Shown here in pieces: positions 1,163-8,269 of a stretch of 47,860 bases of DNA. Each line of letters begins with the position of its first letter. The stretch's first letter is position 1. The DNA is from Usitatibacteraceae bacterium (GTDB taxonomy: Bacteria; Pseudomonadota; Gammaproteobacteria; Burkholderiales; Usitatibacteraceae), in NCBI GenBank assembly GCA_046596005.1, contig JBKJMK010000286.1, positions 1 through 47,860 of the forward strand, given 5' to 3'. The notes under the pieces are model-generated. The model saw only the letters and a program-made list of their open reading frames with translations. It did no database searches and was not told the DNA's origin. The translations under genes were made by a program, and so were the position numbers.

Positions 1163-3274
1163 TTAAAACGAATACGCTGCATTCAACCCGACCAGAACGT
1201 TGCGCCCCGGTGCCGGTTCAAAGTAGCGTCCTCGTGCCTCAGCCACAATCACCGAACCGATATAGCGATGGTCGGTGACGTTTTCAACCCGCACAAATTC
1301 GCTGATGCGCAAATTGCCGCGAACACCTATCGCGAATTGTTGCTGAAAGCCGGCGCGCACGTTGGCAACGCCAAATCCCGCCGCCGCGTCGGTGTTGGCT
1401 TCATTCACATAAATTTTTTCCGACGCGCGGTATTCAATGCCGGCGTGGAAACCCGAGAGCTGATGTCGCCATAGCAGTTCGACGAATAGCACCGAGCGCG
1501 CCACCCCCGGCAGCAGATTACCGGACGGCACCAGCACCGGCGGTGTACCTGCGCGATAGGCGTCCTTGAAGCGTGCATTCAGCCAGGTGTATGCAGCGTA
1601 GGTTTCAAGGCCAAACGGCAGGACACTTTCGAATGACAGTTCAAGGCCGTCGCGCTGCGTGCGCGAGGCATTGCGGAAATCACTGCGGCCCGCGGTCGAA
1701 GAATTGGTGACGATTTCATTGCGCGTGTCGATACGAAACAGCGCGGCATTGATGCGCGTACTGCCGCTGACCATTGTCTTGACGCCGAACTCGGCATGGC
1801 GACTGCTGGCCGGTTGCAGGGCGAAGTTAAAACCGGTGGTGCCACCCGGCCGATAAGCAAGTTCAGCAAAGGTCGGCGTTTCAAATCCTTCGCCGTAGTT
1901 CGCGTACACGTTCCACTGCGGTGCCAGCTTGAACAACACACCCAGCACCGGCGTGGCGCGTGCGTAACTGACCTTGCCGCTGTCGTCGGGATTAACGCCG
2001 ACGATATAGTGATCCGAGGAATCGAATTTCACCCGGCTGTGGCGCGCACCGCCGCTGAGGCTCAACGCATCTGCGACCTGCCATTCGGCCTGTGCATAGA
2101 AATCAGTATTGCCAACCCGATCATCCTCATCGCGTTTCAGAACGCCCTGTGTACCAGCGTTGTTGACGAAGCCACGGCGCCGTTCGTTGAGGCGATCAGC
2201 GTCGACGCCGGCAGAGAAGGTCAGCGCCCGATTGGCAACCAATGTGCGCCGCGTCCAGCGCAACCCCATGCCGCCGTAGGTTCTGTCGAGGTCAACCACA
2301 CCGCCTGCACCCAGTGGTGTATTGCCGTCCTGGCTGAGGAACTGCTTCACAGTACGGCCACCGCCGTAGAGTCTGGCTTGCAACGCGCCGCCCGCGGTGT
2401 CTGCATCGCCAAGGTCATAGATCGCGCCAAGCTGATTCTGGCGAATACTCTTTCGCGTGTTGAACGTCAGCGCCGAGATATCGACCTGACGCCAATCGGT
2501 TTGCACTTGCGCGCGCGTCAGGCCCAGTGGATCCTGTGTGTCCGGCTGATTCAGGGCATTCGCGACCAGCGTAAGTTTTCCTGTGTAGACCGGAACGCTG
2601 AATTTGGCGTTGAGCTGGTCGCGCGTTGCGGCGCTGTGGACCCGATAGCCATCGGTACTGAAGCGTGAAATATCGACAACGTAGTTCAGACTATCTTCCT
2701 GCCCCCCAAACTGCATGCCAACTTTTTTCGCACCGTAACTTCCTGCAAAAAAGGAACCGCTGACGGTCGGCACTGCCGGGCCGTCCGCTGTGAAAATCTG
2801 CACCACGCCACCGGAAGAATTGCCATACAAACTCGCAAACGGGCCGCGCAAGACTTCAATGCGTTCCGCCGAGGATAGATTGAACGTCGCCGCCTGCCCC
2901 TGTCCGTCGGGCATGGTGGCGGGAATACCGTCGGCGATGAGCCTGACGCCGCGCACCCCGAAAGTGGCTCGCGCGCCGAAGCCGCGTGAGGATATCTGCA
3001 AATCCTGCGCGTAATTCTGGCGATTCTGCACCACGATGCCTGGCACACGATTGAGCACTTCGGAAAGATTGACTTGCGGCTTGGCCTCAGAGATCACCCC
3101 TGCATCGATGCGATCAATCGCCATTGGCAGGTTGAAGCCGTCCTGCTGCACGCGTGTGGCGCTGATGACAAGTTGCGGAATGCTGGGCACCACGGCAGCC
3201 GACGTTTGCGCAGCGGCGGTAACAGTGGCACAAAGCAGAAACACGCCGCAACTCAGATACCGGCTTCGGATCAT
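1163..3274 (-). CDS. TonB-dependent outer-membrane receptor (substrate unknown)
   Basis: ORF 1163..3349. The likely start is the internal ATG at 3274 (MIRSRYLSCGVFLLCATVTAAAQ signal peptide). It has a plug-domain region (ISSRGFGARATFGVRGVRLIADGIP...IEVLRGPFASLYGNSSGGVV), a long beta-barrel-type sequence and a C-terminal aromatic residue (..AAYSF). Confidence 0.85.
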   Translation of the reverse strand: MIRSRYLSCGVFLLCATVTAAAQTSAAVVPSIPQLVISATRVQQDGFNLPMAIDRIDAGVISEAKPQVNLSEVLNRVPGIVVQNRQNYAQDLQISSRGFGARATFGVRGVRLIADGIPATMPDGQGQAATFNLSSAERIEVLRGPFASLYGNSSGGVVQIFTADGPAVPTVSGSFFAGSYGAKKVGMQFGGQEDSLNYVVDISRFSTDGYRVHSAATRDQLNAKFSVPVYTGKLTLVANALNQPDTQDPLGLTRAQVQTDWRQVDISALTFNTRKSIRQNQLGAIYDLGDADTAGGALQARLYGGGRTVKQFLSQDGNTPLGAGGVVDLDRTYGGMGLRWTRRTLVANRALTFSAGVDADRLNERRRGFVNNAGTQGVLKRDEDDRVGNTDFYAQAEWQVADALSLSGGARHSRVKFDSSDHYIVGVNPDDSGKVSYARATPVLGVLFKLAPQWNVYANYGEGFETPTFAELAYRPGGTTGFNFALQPASSRHAEFGVKTMVSGSTRINAALFRIDTRNEIVTNSSTAGRSDFRNASRTQRDGLELSFESVLPFGLETYAAYTWLNARFKDAYRAGTPPVLVPSGNLLPGVARSVLFVELLWRHQLSGFHAGIEYRASEKIYVNEANTDAAAGFGVANVRAGFQQQFAIGVRGNLRISEFVRVENVTDHRYIGSVIVAEARGRYFEPAPGRNVLVGLNAAYSF

Positions 3275-3410
3275 TGCTTCAATCTCGCCATGGTGCCGTC
3301 GATGTCCTGGCGCGCAACGGTTTTGAAGCCCACGCAACTGGGCGCTCAAAAACAGCCGTCAGCGCCGCAATCACCCACTGAGCGAGAAGGAAAACTTTCA
3401 TATCGACTCC

Positions 3411-3502: not shown

Positions 3503-3700
3503 TTATTTCGTCGCTTTGATCGGCAACGGAAAATACGCGTAAGCCTGCTTCGGTGCCGCCGACTCTTCCTGTCGCTTCAATTCCTCAAGATTCTGCTTTT
3601 TGTCCCACCACGTTGCGCGGTTGGTTTTCTGCAGTTCTTTGAGTTCAGGATTTTTTTCCATCAAGTCACGAACAAATTTGGTGATATCGGATTCGTACAT
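3503..3700 (-). CDS. Small conserved protein, DUF3460-like
   Basis: 65-aa ORF MYESDITKFVRDLMEKNPELKELQKTNRATWWDKKQ... It is charged and non-membrane, resembles small DUF3460 proteins of Burkholderiales (family assignment from memory), and is divergent from glrK. Confidence 0.7.
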   Translation of the reverse strand: MYESDITKFVRDLMEKNPELKELQKTNRATWWDKKQNLEELKRQEESAAPKQAYAYFPLPIKATK

Positions 3701-3785: not shown

Positions 3786-3800
3786 TGGCACGGCCTTTGC
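3786..3800 (+). promoter_or_regulatory. Sigma54 (-24/-12) promoter upstream of glrK
   Basis: cTGGCACGGCCTTTGCT matches the extended consensus YTGGCACGR-N3-TTGCW at every fixed position. It lies 20 nt upstream of ATG 3820. Confidence 0.6.
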
Positions 3801-3819: not shown

Positions 3820-5304
3820 ATGAATAAATCCAGTTCATCAAACGACAAACCGCTCATGGAACTGCGTTACCCGAAGTCCTTTTTGGGCCTGCTGCTGGTC
3901 GGCTTTGCGATCGTTGCGTTGCCGCTGATCGCAGGTCTGGTGTCGAATGCTTTTTCGATTGAGCGGCTATCCGAGCAGAGTCAGAAAGCGGTATTCAATG
4001 CAACCATTGCGACACAGAATGCCCGGCAACTTTCTTCCGTCGCGCTCGCGATGGAACGTTCGGCGCGTTTTTATGCGGTCTCTGGTGACCGTGATCTGAT
4101 CGAAGTTTACAAACAATCCCGCGATAGTTTTCGAAAACTGCTTGGCGAGTTTGTCGCGTTGCCATCAGCACATGATATGCAGGCGGCAGTAGACGCGGTG
4201 CAGCAACGGGAGACAGGCATTTTTGCATTGTTGACCGAAAAGGCACCTTCGTCCGAATTTGCCAGACAGCTCGAGCGTGATTTCGCCGATCTTGCATTGC
4301 GCACGCAAGCACTGAACACGCTTGCCAATCAGTTAATCGAGCAGGAAGTCGCCGCATTGAAAACATCGGCAGCGAAGTCGCGCAATCAGGTCATCTGGCA
4401 ACTGCTGGCGATGATTCCATCGGCACTGCTGATGATTGCCGGTTTTACGTACCTGCTGGCGAGGCCTATTCGCGATCTGGATGAGGCCATCCATCGTCTG
4501 GGTGAAGGCAAATTGGCCAAACGCATTCGCGTCAGTGGCCCGCGTGACATTGAAATGCTGGGGGAACAACTGGATTGGCTGCGTCAGCGCCTGATTTCGC
4601 TCGAAGATCAGAAGACGCGTTTTTTTCAGCATGTTTCGCATGAACTAAAAACACCGCTCACTGCGCTGCGCGAGGGCTCTGATCTGCTGAGTGATGAAGT
4701 GATTGGCAAGCTCAACGATGAGCAGCGCGAAGTTGCCGCCATACTTAAGCAGAATTCGCTCACGCTTGAAAAGCTGATTCAGGATTTGTTGACCTATTCG
4801 CAAGCACAGTCCTCCGACCGTCTTGGTCGCAAGACCGCACTCGACATCAAGGCGTTGCAATTGCGTGATCTCATCGATGATGTGATCAATGCGCAGCGGC
4901 TCGCGATCATCGCCAAATCAATCACCGTCAAACGCGAATGCGAAAAGACAACCTTTCAAGGCGATGCCGAAAAGCTGCGTGTCGTTATCGATAACCTGCT
5001 ATCAAACGCCATCAAATATTCACCGCCGGGCGGCACCATCGTGCTGCGCCTGGGCAAACACAATGACCACGCGGTGATTGAAGTGATCGACAGCGGCCCA
5101 GGCATTCCAGTGGAAGACCGTGATCGGATTTTTGATCCGTTTTATCGCGGCAAGAGCGCAGCAGCATCGGGTACCAAAGGTTCAGGGCTGGGCCTCGCGA
5201 TCGTGCGCGACTATGTTGAGTTGCACCAGGGAACGGTAAAGGCGATTGCGGCCACAGGTGCGCATTTTCGCGTTAGCCTCCCCAAGACCACAACCGCCAT
5301 TTGA
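3820..5304 (+). CDS. glrK: Sensor histidine kinase GlrK (QseE)-like
   Basis: 494-aa ORF with two TM segments flanking a periplasmic domain, a HAMP region (RPIRDLDEAIHRLGEG), an H-box FFQHVSHELKTPLTALREGSDLL and an HATPase domain (SNAIKYSPPGG..GSGLGLAIV). It aligns along its length with E. coli GlrK as I recall it. Alternative start at ATG 3856 (MELRYPKSF). Confidence 0.88.
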   Translation: MNKSSSSNDKPLMELRYPKSFLGLLLVGFAIVALPLIAGLVSNAFSIERLSEQSQKAVFNATIATQNARQLSSVALAMERSARFYAVSGDRDLIEVYKQSRDSFRKLLGEFVALPSAHDMQAAVDAVQQRETGIFALLTEKAPSSEFARQLERDFADLALRTQALNTLANQLIEQEVAALKTSAAKSRNQVIWQLLAMIPSALLMIAGFTYLLARPIRDLDEAIHRLGEGKLAKRIRVSGPRDIEMLGEQLDWLRQRLISLEDQKTRFFQHVSHELKTPLTALREGSDLLSDEVIGKLNDEQREVAAILKQNSLTLEKLIQDLLTYSQAQSSDRLGRKTALDIKALQLRDLIDDVINAQRLAIIAKSITVKRECEKTTFQGDAEKLRVVIDNLLSNAIKYSPPGGTIVLRLGKHNDHAVIEVIDSGPGIPVEDRDRIFDPFYRGKSAAASGTKGSGLGLAIVRDYVELHQGTVKAIAATGAHFRVSLPKTTTAI

Positions 5305-5314
5305 TGGAATTCCC

Positions 5315-5959
5315 TTGAAACTGAAATTGATTTTTTTGCTCGCTTACATTTGTCTGTTCGGTGCCTGCGCACTCGAACCCAAACGGGTGGAGCCTCTGGT
5401 GGCGCGGACAATTGAACAAGTTGCTGCGCCGTCGGAAGTCGACCAGCTGCTGGCGTACATGATGCAATCGCGCAAGCTTGACGCGCGCGAGCTAGCAGCC
5501 GAGCGTGAACAGATGCGCAATACATTTCACTCGGAAAAATCCGAGTTCAATCGCGTCAAGCTGGCGATGTTATTGACGTCATCTACCGCAACATCGGCAG
5601 CTTCTGCGAACGATGATGGCGAGCTTGCAGCGTTGCTCGAGCCCTTGGTCCGCGGCGCAAACGCGTCAACTACGGACGCTGCAATGGACGCGCAAAAGAC
5701 GGAAGTTCGCGCGCTGGCAATATTGCTCGCCGGTATGGCCCAAGAACGTAAAAAACTGCGCGATTTGTTGCGCGAAACGCAAACTCGCCTAAACACATTG
5801 CGGCGCGATGACACGAAGGAAATGGAAGTTCGCGCATTGCGCTCGCGCGTGGCAGAACTTGAGCGTAATCTTGCGGCACTGAAATCCATTGATCGTAGTG
5901 TCAATCGCAGGTCTGAAACGCAGCGCACCGAAACGCTGCGTGTGGATCCCCCTAAGTGA
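5315..5959 (+). CDS. qseG: QseG/YfhG-like lipoprotein, middle gene of the GlrK-GlrR system
   Basis: In-frame TTG at 5315, 10 nt after the glrK stop, gives MKLKLIFLLAYICLFGAC (lipobox LFGAC). The C-terminal half is coiled-coil-like (RALRSRVAELERNLAALKSIDRSV), resembling the E. coli QseG C-terminus (..LENLTDIERQLS..). It occupies the same position between kinase and regulator. Confidence 0.6.
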   Translation: MKLKLIFLLAYICLFGACALEPKRVEPLVARTIEQVAAPSEVDQLLAYMMQSRKLDARELAAEREQMRNTFHSEKSEFNRVKLAMLLTSSTATSAASANDDGELAALLEPLVRGANASTTDAAMDAQKTEVRALAILLAGMAQERKKLRDLLRETQTRLNTLRRDDTKEMEVRALRSRVAELERNLAALKSIDRSVNRRSETQRTETLRVDPPK

Positions 5960-7341
5960 GCAGTCCGCAAATGCAAAACCTGTTACTGGTTGATGATGAC
6001 CCCGATCTCCTGAAGTTGCTGTCTATTCGCCTGAAGGCGAGCGGATTTCGGGCCACCACTGCCGTCAGTGGCGAGCAAGCATTATCGATGATTGCCGCCG
6101 AGCGACCCGATTTGGTGATCACTGACCTGCGCATGGCAGGCCTCGATGGCCTGGCGTTATTTCACGAAATCGAGCGCCGCCACACGGGCTTGCCGGTCAT
6201 CATACTGACGGCGCACGGCACGATACCGGATGCAGTCGCCGCGACAAGACAGGGCGTGTTTGGCTATCTCACCAAACCCTACGACGCGAATGAATTGCTG
6301 GCACAGGTACGACGCGCATTGTCGCTACATGGCAGCGGCGGTTCCTCTGTTTCAGGGGCGGGGTTAACGTCGAGCAAGACCGATGCAGCATGGCGCAGTG
6401 AAATTGTTACCAGAAGCCCGGCGATGGAAGACTTGTTATTGCGCGCAGAGCGGATTGCGCAAGGCGATGCGAGCGTACTCATTCAGGGCGAGAGCGGTAC
6501 CGGCAAGGAGTTGCTTGCGCGTGCCTTGCATCGCGCCAGTCGGCGTGCTGAGCGTCCTTTCGTGGCCATCAACTGTGGGGCGATCCCGGAAGCATTGTTG
6601 GAGTCGGAATTATTTGGCCACAAGAAAGGCGCCTTTACCGGAGCCACTACTGACCACCCGGGACTGTTCGTGGAAGCGCATACAGGCACCTTGCTGCTCG
6701 ATGAGATCGGCGATATGCCGCTGGCGTTGCAGGTAAAACTCTTACGGGTTCTCGAAGCGCGCGAAATCCGTGCTGTCGGCTCGACCAAAACGATACCGGT
6801 CGATGTTCGCGTCATCTCGGCCAGTCATCGGGATTTAAACCAGGCCAAAAAAGAGGGTGCTTTTCGCGAGGATTTATTCTATCGATTGAACGTCGTTACG
6901 CTTAAGTTGCCTGCGCTTCGGGAACGTCGCGAAGACATCCCGTTGCTGCTTTCGCATTTCCTGAAGGAGCTTTCCAGGCGATACGAGAAGAACGTAAATG
7001 CGCTTTCACATGATGCGCTGGAGATCATGTGTGCCGCTGCATGGCCGGGAAACATCCGCCAGTTATACAACGTCGTCGAACAAGTGGTAGCGCTCTCCTC
7101 GGGAGAAATTGTCTCGACGAAAATTGTCGAACAAGCGATGCAGATGGAAATGCAAGGGCTCGATTCCTTCGAAGAGGCGCGCCGCCGCTTTGAGTATGAC
7201 TATCTAACCCGCCTGCTGAAACTCACCCAAGGTAGCGTGACGCAAGCGGCAAAACTGGCTAAACGCAATCGCACTGAGTTTTACAAGCTGCTCCAGCGAC
7301 ATGGAATCGAAGCCACCCACTTCAAGCCAACAACCAATTGA
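5956..7341 (+). CDS. glrR: Sigma54-dependent response regulator GlrR (QseF)-like
   Basis: The receiver domain (LLLVDDDPDLLKLL...DLVITDLRMAGLDG...VIILTAHGTIPDAVAATRQGVFGYLTKP) is nearly colinear with E. coli GlrR. It has an AAA+ domain with GESGTGKE, the GAFTGA sigma54-contact motif (HKKGAFTGA) and a C-terminal HTH. The GTG start overlaps the upstream stop (GTGA); ATG 5971 is an alternative. Confidence 0.9.
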   Translation: MSSPQMQNLLLVDDDPDLLKLLSIRLKASGFRATTAVSGEQALSMIAAERPDLVITDLRMAGLDGLALFHEIERRHTGLPVIILTAHGTIPDAVAATRQGVFGYLTKPYDANELLAQVRRALSLHGSGGSSVSGAGLTSSKTDAAWRSEIVTRSPAMEDLLLRAERIAQGDASVLIQGESGTGKELLARALHRASRRAERPFVAINCGAIPEALLESELFGHKKGAFTGATTDHPGLFVEAHTGTLLLDEIGDMPLALQVKLLRVLEAREIRAVGSTKTIPVDVRVISASHRDLNQAKKEGAFREDLFYRLNVVTLKLPALRERREDIPLLLSHFLKELSRRYEKNVNALSHDALEIMCAAAWPGNIRQLYNVVEQVVALSSGEIVSTKIVEQAMQMEMQGLDSFEEARRRFEYDYLTRLLKLTQGSVTQAAKLAKRNRTEFYKLLQRHGIEATHFKPTTN

Positions 7342-7377
7342 GTGCCTATCTCAAGTTGAATGTTGCGATGCGGAAAG

Positions 7378-7479
7378 CGTCGCATTTGATCGCCAACCGT
7401 CGCTATTTAGAGACAAATATTCACCTGCGTAATCAGCGACTTAGAATTTAGTATTGAATTTTGTCGCTATTTGACGACA
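7378..7479 (+). promoter_or_regulatory. Upstream activating region with three GlrR-type sites
   Basis: Site 1 is 7378-7395 CGTCGCATTTGATCGCCA (degenerate right half). Site 2 is 7398-7415 CGTC-GCTATTTAGA-GACA. Site 3 is 7462-7479 TGTC-GCTATTTGAC-GACA, an exact TGTC-N10-GACA. All three share the core GTCGC(T)ATTT. Confidence 0.65.
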
Positions 7480-7554
7480 AACACGTTCGATTGTTAGCCT
7501 CATCAATCGAGCGAAAATACGTTAACAAATTGTTTTTTAACAATTTAATTATTC

Positions 7555-7570
7555 TGGCACAAGGGTTGCT
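7555..7570 (+). promoter_or_regulatory. Sigma54 (-24/-12) promoter of a non-coding transcript
   Basis: TGGCAC-AAGGG-TTGCT is an exact TGGCAC-N5-TTGC. It is preceded by an AT-rich, IHF-like spacer (7517-7552) and lies about 86 bp downstream of site 3. Predicted TSS is about 7581. Confidence 0.75.
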
Positions 7571-7580
7571 GATATAGCTT

Positions 7581-7714
7581 GAATGCTTTTGGATCACCCT
7601 CCCTCCCTGGGTGCTTCGGTGGTTTGGCTAGGTCCCCAAATCCCGCAGGTTCTCCTCTAAAAGCATTCGAGAGTGCGCCTTCAGGGGCGGTCGAAAGACT
7701 GCCCCTACTTTTTT
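7581..7714 (+). ncRNA. Candidate sigma54/GlrR-dependent small RNA (~135 nt), family not recognised
   Basis: It runs from the predicted TSS to the terminator U-tract with no ORF. A perfect 10-bp closing helix pairs GAAUGCUUUU (7581-7590) with AAAAGCAUUC (7659-7668). Internal hairpins are CACCC/GGGUG (loop UCCCUCCCU) and GGUUUGG/CCAAAUC. No + strand gene lies downstream; the next genes are convergent. Confidence 0.6.
7683..7714 (+). terminator. Intrinsic terminator of the candidate sRNA
   Basis: AGGGGCGGUC-GAAA-GACUGCCCCU forms a 10-bp stem with one G-U pair and a GNRA loop, followed by ACUUUUUU. Confidence 0.8.
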
Positions 7715-7730
7715 GTGCCACTAACTTTAC

Positions 7731-7931
7731 CTAATCGCACTCCTCGATCCAAGCCATCTGGATCGCCTCCAGTATTTTTTCTCCTGATTTGTTTGGGTCG
7801 TCATCAAACTCCACCAACTCGCATACCCACTGATGTAAATCGGTGAAGCGGATGATTTTCGGATCAACGTCGGGAAACTTGTCGCTCAGTTGAATCGCAA
7901 TTTCAAGGCTATCGGTCCATTTGAGCGGCAT
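7731..7931 (-). CDS. iscX: Fe-S assembly protein IscX
   Basis: The internal ATG at 7931 (ATGA overlap with the fdx stop) gives 66 aa: [64 protein letters not shown]. This is close to E. coli IscX. Confidence 0.9.
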
Positions 7932-8269
7932 CAGTGGTTCTCCCGCGCGTGATTGATGGTGTACTTCGGGATCTCGATCACAAGTGGTGTATCTCGCACC
8001 TTTGCCTGACAGGATAATCGCGACAATGGCGTCAGGCCCCATGCCATATCGAGCATGTCTTCTTCCTTTTCTTCCTGCTCGTCGAGCGAATTCAATCCTT
8101 CACGCACGATCACGTGGCAGGTCGTACAGGCACAGGATTTTTCGCAAGCGTGTTCGATCGCGATGTGATTGCGCAGCAGAGCGTCACACACCGTTTCGCC
8201 ATTGGGTGCATCGAATTCAAGACCGCTTGGGCAAAGTCTTTCATGCGGCAGTACGTGGATTTTTGTCAT
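7931..8269 (-). CDS. fdx: ISC-system [2Fe-2S] ferredoxin
   Basis: 112 aa with the Cys pattern [11 protein letters not shown]...LSCQ, in the position after hscA. Confidence 0.92.

Follow-up and report, generated by a model that had tools for sequence, protein, structure and literature searches.

In enterobacteria, GlmY and GlmZ, two small RNAs (sRNAs), are switched on by the response regulator GlrR together with IHF and sigma-54. The GlrR site consensus is TGTCN10GACA, and at glmY the first activator-binding site (ABS1) is dispensable and shows little conservation, ABS3 has an IHF site with the consensus WATCARNNNNTTR on either side, and the sigma-54 promoter needs IHF (Göpel et al., PMC3045617). 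The same study placed glmY upstream of the glrK-qseG-glrR genes, and its BLAST searches retrieved GlmY and GlmZ from Enterobacteriaceae only (PMC3045617). Here we analyze a 47,860-nt stretch of DNA (contig JBKJMK010000286.1 of a Usitatibacteraceae bacterium, assembly GCA_046596005.1; hereafter, the window), in which the gap between glrR and the convergent gene iscX contains a candidate sRNA gene at positions 7581-7714 of the + strand. Comparison of related loci shows a conserved, structured, terminated and evidently non-coding unit that is physically linked to glrR, and we consider it likely that this unit is a stand-alone regulatory RNA of ~134 nt, transcribed under GlrR/IHF/sigma-54 control and acting in trans.

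The promoter region of the candidate gene is comprised of the following elements, where negative positions are relative to the predicted +1 at 7581:

7378-7395: weak third GlrR-type site, ABS1-like, CGTC-N10-GCCA, 6/8 consensus positions
7398-7415: distal GlrR-type site, CGTC-N10-GACA, 7/8; start at -183, centre at about -174
7431-7443, + strand: IHF site 1, AATCAGCGACTTA, exact match to the consensus, located between the two GlrR sites
7462-7479: proximal GlrR-type site, TGTC-N10-GACA, 8/8; start at -119, centre at about -110
7523-7535, - strand: IHF-like site 2, AAACAATTTGTTA, one mismatch, at -58, within the conserved block ...ATTGTTTTT...
7555-7569, + strand: sigma-54 promoter TGGCAC-N5-TTGC, TGGCACAAGGGTTGC, with the -24 GG at 7556-7557 and the -12 GC at 7568-7569

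The initial annotation of this gap had listed three TGTC-type sites, an IHF-like near-match on the minus strand and an exact sigma-54 promoter. All three binding sites are found at the proposed positions, and those at 7398 and 7462 are conserved, whereas the 6/8 site at 7378-7395 has no conserved counterpart in the homologues and is gone from loci in which glrR ends right next to the distal site. The minus-strand near-match corresponds to a conserved island at -58, but the better, exact IHF site at 7431-7443 had been overlooked. The sigma-54 promoter is present as described, and its -24/-12 elements (GG and GC 10 bp apart) are conserved in all complete homologues.

Statistics of the single sequence are of limited use here. 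Two copies of the fixed sigma-54 pattern are present in the window (3786 and 7555), as annotated; the shuffle mean is 0.21, and at least two occurrences were obtained in 3/100 shuffles. For TGTC-N10-GACA alone, two sites were found in the window versus 0.73 expected, which is not significant. The case was thus built on the comparison of related sequences and not on single-sequence statistics. Promoter footprinting was carried out by alignment of 23 upstream regions from related loci, in which conservation is limited to five islands:

island 1: GTC...GACA, the distal GlrR site
island 2: ATCA...TT, IHF site 1
island 3: TGTC...CGAC, the proximal GlrR site
island 4: the ATTGTTTT block, IHF-like site 2 on the minus strand
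island 5: TGGCA...TTGC, the -24/-12 sigma-54 promoter

After the fifth island, conservation returns at GAAT, the predicted +1. The suggested start of a ~135-nt plus-strand unit near 7581 agrees with the aligned loci, where conservation resumes exactly at 7581. The distal GlrR site lies at a constant distance from the promoter in every locus with enough upstream sequence, and in one homologous locus (L130) IHF-like site 2 has exact minus-strand matches to the consensus. In the window, the proximal GlrR site starts 93 nt before TGGCAC, and the starts of the distal and proximal sites are 64 bp apart.

The E. coli glmY promoter was fetched for comparison, and the positions of the element starts relative to +1 are nearly superimposable in the two promoters:

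ABS1: -230 at E. coli glmY, -203 in the window (weak, 6/8)
ABS2 (distal): -197 at E. coli glmY, -183 in the window
IHF site between ABS2 and ABS3: -177 at E. coli glmY, -150 in the window (exact consensus)
ABS3 (proximal): -134 at E. coli glmY, -119 in the window
promoter-proximal IHF site: -58 at E. coli glmY, -58 in the window (one mismatch)
sigma-54 element: -27 at E. coli glmY, -26 in the window
ABS2-ABS3 spacing: 63 bp at E. coli glmY, 64 bp in the window

By its anatomy this is a putative GlrR/IHF/sigma-54 promoter. The glmY-like architecture, combined with a helix-turn-helix (HTH) recognition helix (RNRTEFYKLL) that is the same in the window GlrR and in E. coli GlrR, provides strong indirect evidence for control of the window promoter by GlrR and IHF. 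GlrR, IHF and sigma-54 very probably switch on this RNA as they do GlmY and GlmZ in enterics, and the identical recognition helix makes the window promoter directly testable in E. coli.

The transcribed region was delineated by its consensus structure, covariation and a covariance model, and contains the following elements, all on the + strand:

7581-7714: small RNA of ~134 nt
7581-7593 paired with 7656-7668: P1, a long closing helix
7595-7599 paired with 7609-7613: P2, with the loop UCCCUCCCU at 7600-7608, which contains an invariant CCUCCCU
7614-7627 paired with 7636-7649: P3, a variable stem with the invariant apical sequence UAGGUCCCC at 7629-7637
7650-7655: C/U-rich junction UUCUCC; junction motif UUCUCCUCC
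7666-7681: invariant single-stranded linker, the 16-mer UUCGAGAGUGCGCCUU, as seen in the alignment of homologues
7683-7714: intrinsic terminator, a 10-bp GC-rich stem with a GAAA loop (7683-7706) followed by T6 (U6 in the RNA) up to 7714

The minimum free energy of the 134-nt RNA is -57.7 kcal/mol (z-score of -4.82 versus shuffles). The consensus fold was computed by RNAalifold on 20 sequences. In the MAFFT alignment of these sequences, 96.2% of cells pair versus at most 51% in slid controls, and 13 pairs show compensatory changes. In the alignment of 26 sequences to the covariance model, 97.2% of cells pair versus at most 49% in slid controls, 17/32 pairs are compensatory, and all five structure measures beat 500/500 shuffles. 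Alignment to a covariance model leans towards the structure, but the independent MAFFT alignment agrees. Covariation therefore shows a fold in which P1 encloses two hairpins and is followed by the single-stranded 16-mer and then by the terminator. The latter had been annotated with the same 10-bp stem, GAAA loop and U6 tract; it is present, agrees with a terminator scan, and carries compensatory changes in 6/9 pairs. Partition-function folding predicts that both hairpin loops (P2 and P3) are unpaired, together with the junction and part of the linker. A terminator with a U tail and accessible conserved segments, two of the traits that define Hfq-type trans-acting sRNAs, are present, and the window revealed no target.

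The gap had been described as free of open reading frames (ORFs). Three mechanical ORFs are in fact present (7579-7734 on the + strand, 7545-7721 on the - strand and 7673-7846 on the + strand), although the frame of each is kept in none of the homologues. The existence of these ORFs leaves room for a small protein encoded by the first (51 aa, TTG start) or the second (58 aa) of them. Inside the conserved block the frame is broken by indels that are not multiples of three in nearly all homologues, and this shift of the frame speaks against a protein gene. The TTG start is also lost, a Shine-Dalgarno sequence is absent, and substitutions are compensatory in the helices, which together make a protein product hardly credible.

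Homologues of the RNA were recovered by several routes. A genome scan with the GlrR protein gave three loci from metagenome-assembled genomes (MAGs) of Burkholderiales (L001-L003; GlrR 73-83% identical), and the regions downstream of glrR in these loci align with the window. A metagenome scan, for which we used two invariant blocks combined in a 23-base pattern, matched 43 loci. About half of these were discarded as one repeated gut-metagenome sequence that has no sigma-54 promoter and is unlike the RNA outside the two blocks; the discarded chance matches are L081, L087, L089, L093, L094 and about 16 more loci. Long degenerate patterns thus still yield false matches in very large collections. 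The remaining metagenome loci are true homologues, and there are 20 distinct full-length sequences in all. In total, 26 homologues of the RNA were recovered from metagenomes and related MAGs. Proteins and contigs related to the window are labelled as Burkholderiales or Betaproteobacteria MAGs, with one close relative labelled Usitatibacteraceae, and the hosts among the recovered loci are uncultured Betaproteobacteria only.

In every pattern-selected locus with upstream sequence, glrR is located directly upstream of the RNA. For a test independent of the pattern, loci were fetched by means of four GlrR proteins (73-76% identity), which gave six loci, including L129, a duplicate of L128, and L126, which ends before the RNA position. 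Four distinct loci are long enough downstream (L125, L127, L128 and L130), and the RNA is present in each of them, at 94-138 bits; the covariance model, R1, gives one match in the window at 145.8 bits. In L130 (3964-5598), a beta-lactamase-family gene is located between glrR and the RNA, and the RNA there keeps its own module of two GlrR sites, two IHF sites and the promoter. R1 gave no match in distant GlrR loci (52-61% identity), including those of Nitrococcus, Methylococcales, Acidithiobacillus, Pseudoalteromonas and others. The RNA family is confined to the clade in which GlrR is ~70% or more identical. The conservation expected among relatives was confirmed, with the promoter, two binding sites and the helices kept, the latter with compensatory changes.

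The genomic neighborhood also bears on whether this region belongs to the convergent isc genes (iscX, fdx, hscA) as an antisense element, a 3'-end or a shared iscX terminator, and is not a GlrR output. The end of the RNA and the iscX stop codon are 16 nt apart, and iscX is downstream in most loci. However, iscX is not a neighbor in L002, L003, L102, L108, L111 and L125, the RNA of L130 lies away from isc genes, and the minus-strand hairpin has no T tract following it. The constant link is instead to glrR or to the RNA's own GlrR/sigma-54 promoter module, and we regard an isc element as highly unlikely.

Membership in known RNA families was assessed with Rfam 15. Over the window as a whole, no match reached the gathering threshold, and in the region 7340-7760, with E values up to 10, nothing meaningful was found, the GlmY and GlmZ models (RF00128 and RF00083) being unmatched. 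As a positive control, the GlmY model scores E. coli glmY at 146 bits. Because Rfam is blank while this control works, the RNA falls outside GlmY/GlmZ and every curated family, in agreement with the initial impression that it does not resemble GlmY or GlmZ. A literature search on GlrR/QseF and GlmY/GlmZ in Betaproteobacteria, and on the invariant strings, likewise gave no description of the RNA.

Despite this, the RNA could be a functional counterpart of GlmY/GlmZ, or a homologue diverged past recognition, that controls glmS and amino-sugar synthesis, possibly via a RapZ-like adaptor. Like GlmY and GlmZ (clan CL00011), it is a structured RNA in the range of ~130-200 nt with a structured 5' domain, a conserved single-stranded linker and a terminator, resembling in particular GlmZ, which pairs through nucleotides of its linker. 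It also shares with them the GlrR regulator, the GlrR and IHF sites, the -24/-12 promoter and a position adjoining the glrK-glrR operon (PMC3045617). On the other hand, the covariance models of both families are unmatched even at E 10 while the control is positive, and the fold differs, with three successive stem-loops in GlmY/GlmZ and a three-way junction closed by P1 here. The gene is located downstream of glrR instead of upstream of glrK, and an overlapping sigma-70 promoter of the E. coli glmY type was not detected in the gap. The C/U-rich loops of the window RNA are lacking in GlmY/GlmZ, a single RNA copy is seen in the sequence examined here, and the hosts are uncultured Betaproteobacteria in contrast to Enterobacteriaceae. 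A GlmY/GlmZ counterpart or diverged homologue therefore appears unlikely. In our preferred interpretation, the RNA is probably, by analogy, the GlrR output of a betaproteobacterial clade, with the role of GlmY/GlmZ taken by a different RNA family.

A working scheme for this output can be outlined as follows. The GlrK-like kinase would phosphorylate GlrR, which would then bind the two TGTC-N10-GACA sites whose starts are at -119 and -183, with IHF bending the DNA between the GlrR sites and near -58. Through its ATPase, GlrR would open the closed complex formed with sigma-54 at -24/-12, so that transcription would start from ~7581, and the intrinsic terminator would stop it 16 nt short of the convergent iscX stop codon. 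In the least certain step, the RNA would base-pair in trans with its targets, the candidate segments being the P2 loop CCUCCCU, the junction UUCUCCUCC and the linker UUCGAGAGUGCGCCUU. CCUCCCU and UUCUCCUCC copy the anti-Shine-Dalgarno core and hence should pair with ribosome-binding sites, most likely repressing translation. From the functions under GlrKR control in enterics, envelope-related targets seem probable.

The last step may be replaced by a different mode of action, in which the RNA binds or sequesters a protein, as a GlmY-like decoy or a CrcZ-like sponge, and the 16-mer and the P3 apical loop are protein recognition sites. GlmY and CrcZ are both sigma-54-dependent decoy RNAs. Both UUCGAGAGUGCGCCUU and UAGGUCCCC are absolutely invariant though divergence among the GlrR proteins reaches about 30%, and such invariance fits a fixed partner better than mRNA targets that co-evolve. 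However, these motifs are single-copy, without sponge-type repeats, a candidate protein was not identified, and the two accessible anti-Shine-Dalgarno-like segments fit base pairing. Taken together, a protein-binding function seems improbable to us, and base pairing in trans is preferred.

Several observations weigh against our interpretation of the RNA as a GlrR-controlled, trans-acting regulator. A duplex-folding scan with four exposed segments over both strands of the 47.8-kb window revealed no notable pairing near start codons, the sole strong matches being to the antisense strand of the RNA itself. The invariant 16-mer may just as well bind a protein, and the junction motif UUCUCCUCC is lost in the most divergent homologue, L125. 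The start site, the dependence on GlrR and RpoN, and the binding of IHF are all inferred from the DNA sequence and its comparison with relatives. The assignment of the regulatory proteins is also imperfect: the GlrR protein scores 623 bits, below the NCBIfam curated GlrK/GlrR equivalog cutoff of 763, the kinase shares just 34% identity with E. coli GlrK, and the ORF between them is not detectably QseG (E value of 0.11 versus E. coli QseG).

The significance of this locus is that the same two-component system, acting via a nearly superimposable promoter, would drive an unrelated RNA in a different bacterial class, while in neighboring lineages the same module would drive small envelope proteins. 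The regulator-promoter module appears conserved and the RNA appears to be replaceable cargo, which makes the locus a clear case in which to study the turnover of regulatory RNAs. What emerges is a new family of RNAs governed by a known regulatory logic, represented by 26 sequences, a structure backed by covariation and a covariance model, in poorly studied environmental Betaproteobacteria that are uncultured or rarely cultured. A further-reaching scenario is that GlrKR with a dedicated sigma-54 sRNA predates the split of Beta- and Gammaproteobacteria, that the promoter module was kept while the RNA was replaced, and that the window RNA is an equivalent of GlmY/GlmZ controlling the synthesis of cell-envelope precursors (glmS or a related step), perhaps via widespread RapZ homologues. 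We consider this scenario doubtful. Motif searches with the N-terminus of GlmS and with the P-loop of RapZ gave nothing in the window or in the RNA-carrying loci.

The regulatory genes upstream of the gap, and the convergent gene downstream of it, are arranged as follows:

3786-3800, + strand: second sigma-54 -24/-12 element, an exact match (TGGCACGGCCTTTGC), 20 nt before the glrK start
3820-5304, + strand: GlrK-like sensor histidine kinase, with Pfam domains HAMP, HisKA, HATPase and a weak CHASE3
5246-5959, + strand: lipoprotein-like ORF in the QseG position, start uncertain, with a signal peptide and a lipobox-like ...LFGAC
5956-7341, + strand: glrR, sigma-54 enhancer-binding response regulator, with REC, AAA+ with GAFTGA, and HTH
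7731-8042, - strand: iscX (NCBIfam and Pfam IscX), the convergent neighbor, outside the unit

These genes had been annotated as a clear GlrK/QseG/GlrR set, which holds best for the regulator. The window GlrR shares 56% identity with its E. coli namesake along the full length and has the same recognition helix; it retains the phospho-acceptor D56 in a conserved context, the Pfam domains REC, sigma-54 AAA+ and lid, and the GAFTGA loop. GlrR is its top NCBIfam model, followed by the runner-up models AtoC and NtrC at 433 bits, and its close relatives carry the JGI label GlrR. As the score of 623 bits misses the cutoff of 763, the protein is best called a GlrR-type orthologue candidate. The kinase aligns with E. 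coli GlrK over 456 aa, sensor region included, with an E value of 7e-74 and an identity of 34%. For the middle ORF, Pfam and NCBIfam gave zero matches. This lipoprotein-like gene is absent from some close relatives (compare L092, L095, L106, L128 and L130), including those with ~90%-identical GlrR, in which ~15-100 nt separate the kinase and regulator genes.

The second sigma-54 element sits where enterics have the glmY promoter. It is kept in 10/11 related loci, with at most one mismatch in nine of them and two mismatches in L108, and is found at the following positions in relatives:

L001: 835
L002: 684
L085: 1926
L088: 336
L092: 330
L095: 1627
L106: 5298
L111: 2780

Across the related loci, the element lies 11-54 nt from the glrK start codon, and so there is no space for an RNA gene before glrK. 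No TGTC-N10-GACA site (at least 7/8) was found within 420 nt upstream of this element.

The arrangement of the window RNA next to its presumed regulator has parallels among other sigma-54-dependent sRNAs. In Pseudomonas, the gene of CrcZ, which is controlled by CbrA/CbrB, sigma-54 and IHF, is located directly downstream of the gene of its enhancer-binding response regulator; CrcZ is ~400 nt long and acts as an Hfq/Crc sponge via repeated A-rich motifs. The CrcZ layout is alike in having a sigma-54 sRNA just after its own regulator gene, with upstream activator sites and IHF, whereas its two-component system is a different one, and the window RNA has 134 nt and single C/U-rich motifs. In Vibrio, qrr1 adjoins luxO, and the Qrr genes are usually multi-copy. 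The Qrr RNAs differ from the window RNA in regulator, signal, sequence and fold. They are alike in that an enhancer-binding protein of the response-regulator type (LuxO) drives short Hfq-type base-pairing RNAs from -24/-12 promoters (see also PMC3730234).

The region just after glrR was also compared in more distant lineages. In L005, L007 and L009, the region immediately behind glrR has one or more GlrR-type sites and then, in the same orientation, a -24/-12 element, and the cargo is a protein gene. The distance from the start of the proximal GlrR site to the -24 element is exactly 93 nt in L004, L005 and the window. The covariance model finds no homologue of the window RNA in L004, L005, L007 and L009. 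This pattern suggests that the GlrR output slot next to glrR is conserved and its cargo is lineage-specific.

Individual loci of this group have features of their own. In L007 (1497-2030) and L009 (4314-4846), which are Burkholderiales-type MAGs with GlrR 57-58% identical, the promoter drives a conserved membrane protein of 108 aa that has no Pfam family. L009 has two GlrR-type sites 65 bp apart, and its 3' untranslated region holds CCCGCAGATTCTCCTC, which is similar to 7641-7657 of the window RNA. In L005 (4762-5700), CGTC-N10-GACA is followed 93 nt on by an exact sigma-54 promoter, a ~145-nt leader and a lipoprotein-like ORF. L004 (Nitrococcus mobilis Nb-231, 4745-5078) has an exact TGTCGCTATTCAGCGACA 93 nt before a degenerate -24/-12-like element, TGGTATGACTTTTGT. 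This promoter-like element is followed by ~210 nt with no plus-strand ORF longer than 26 aa, with a C-rich hairpin loop, a C/U-rich CUUUCUCCUUCC stretch and an intrinsic terminator; the fold z-score of the candidate transcript is just -1.69. This cultured gammaproteobacterium may thus have a GlrR-dependent RNA of an unrelated kind.

Upstream of glrK, a DUF3460 gene (3503-3700, - strand) is divergent from the kinase gene, and the same arrangement is found in the relatives L128 and L130. The TTATCATTGC block between this gene and the sigma-54 element is conserved and may be the promoter of the DUF3460 gene itself. A gene for a TonB-dependent receptor (1163-3349, - strand) is located upstream of the DUF3460 gene; its closest model is PqqU, at 613 bits, under the curated cutoff.

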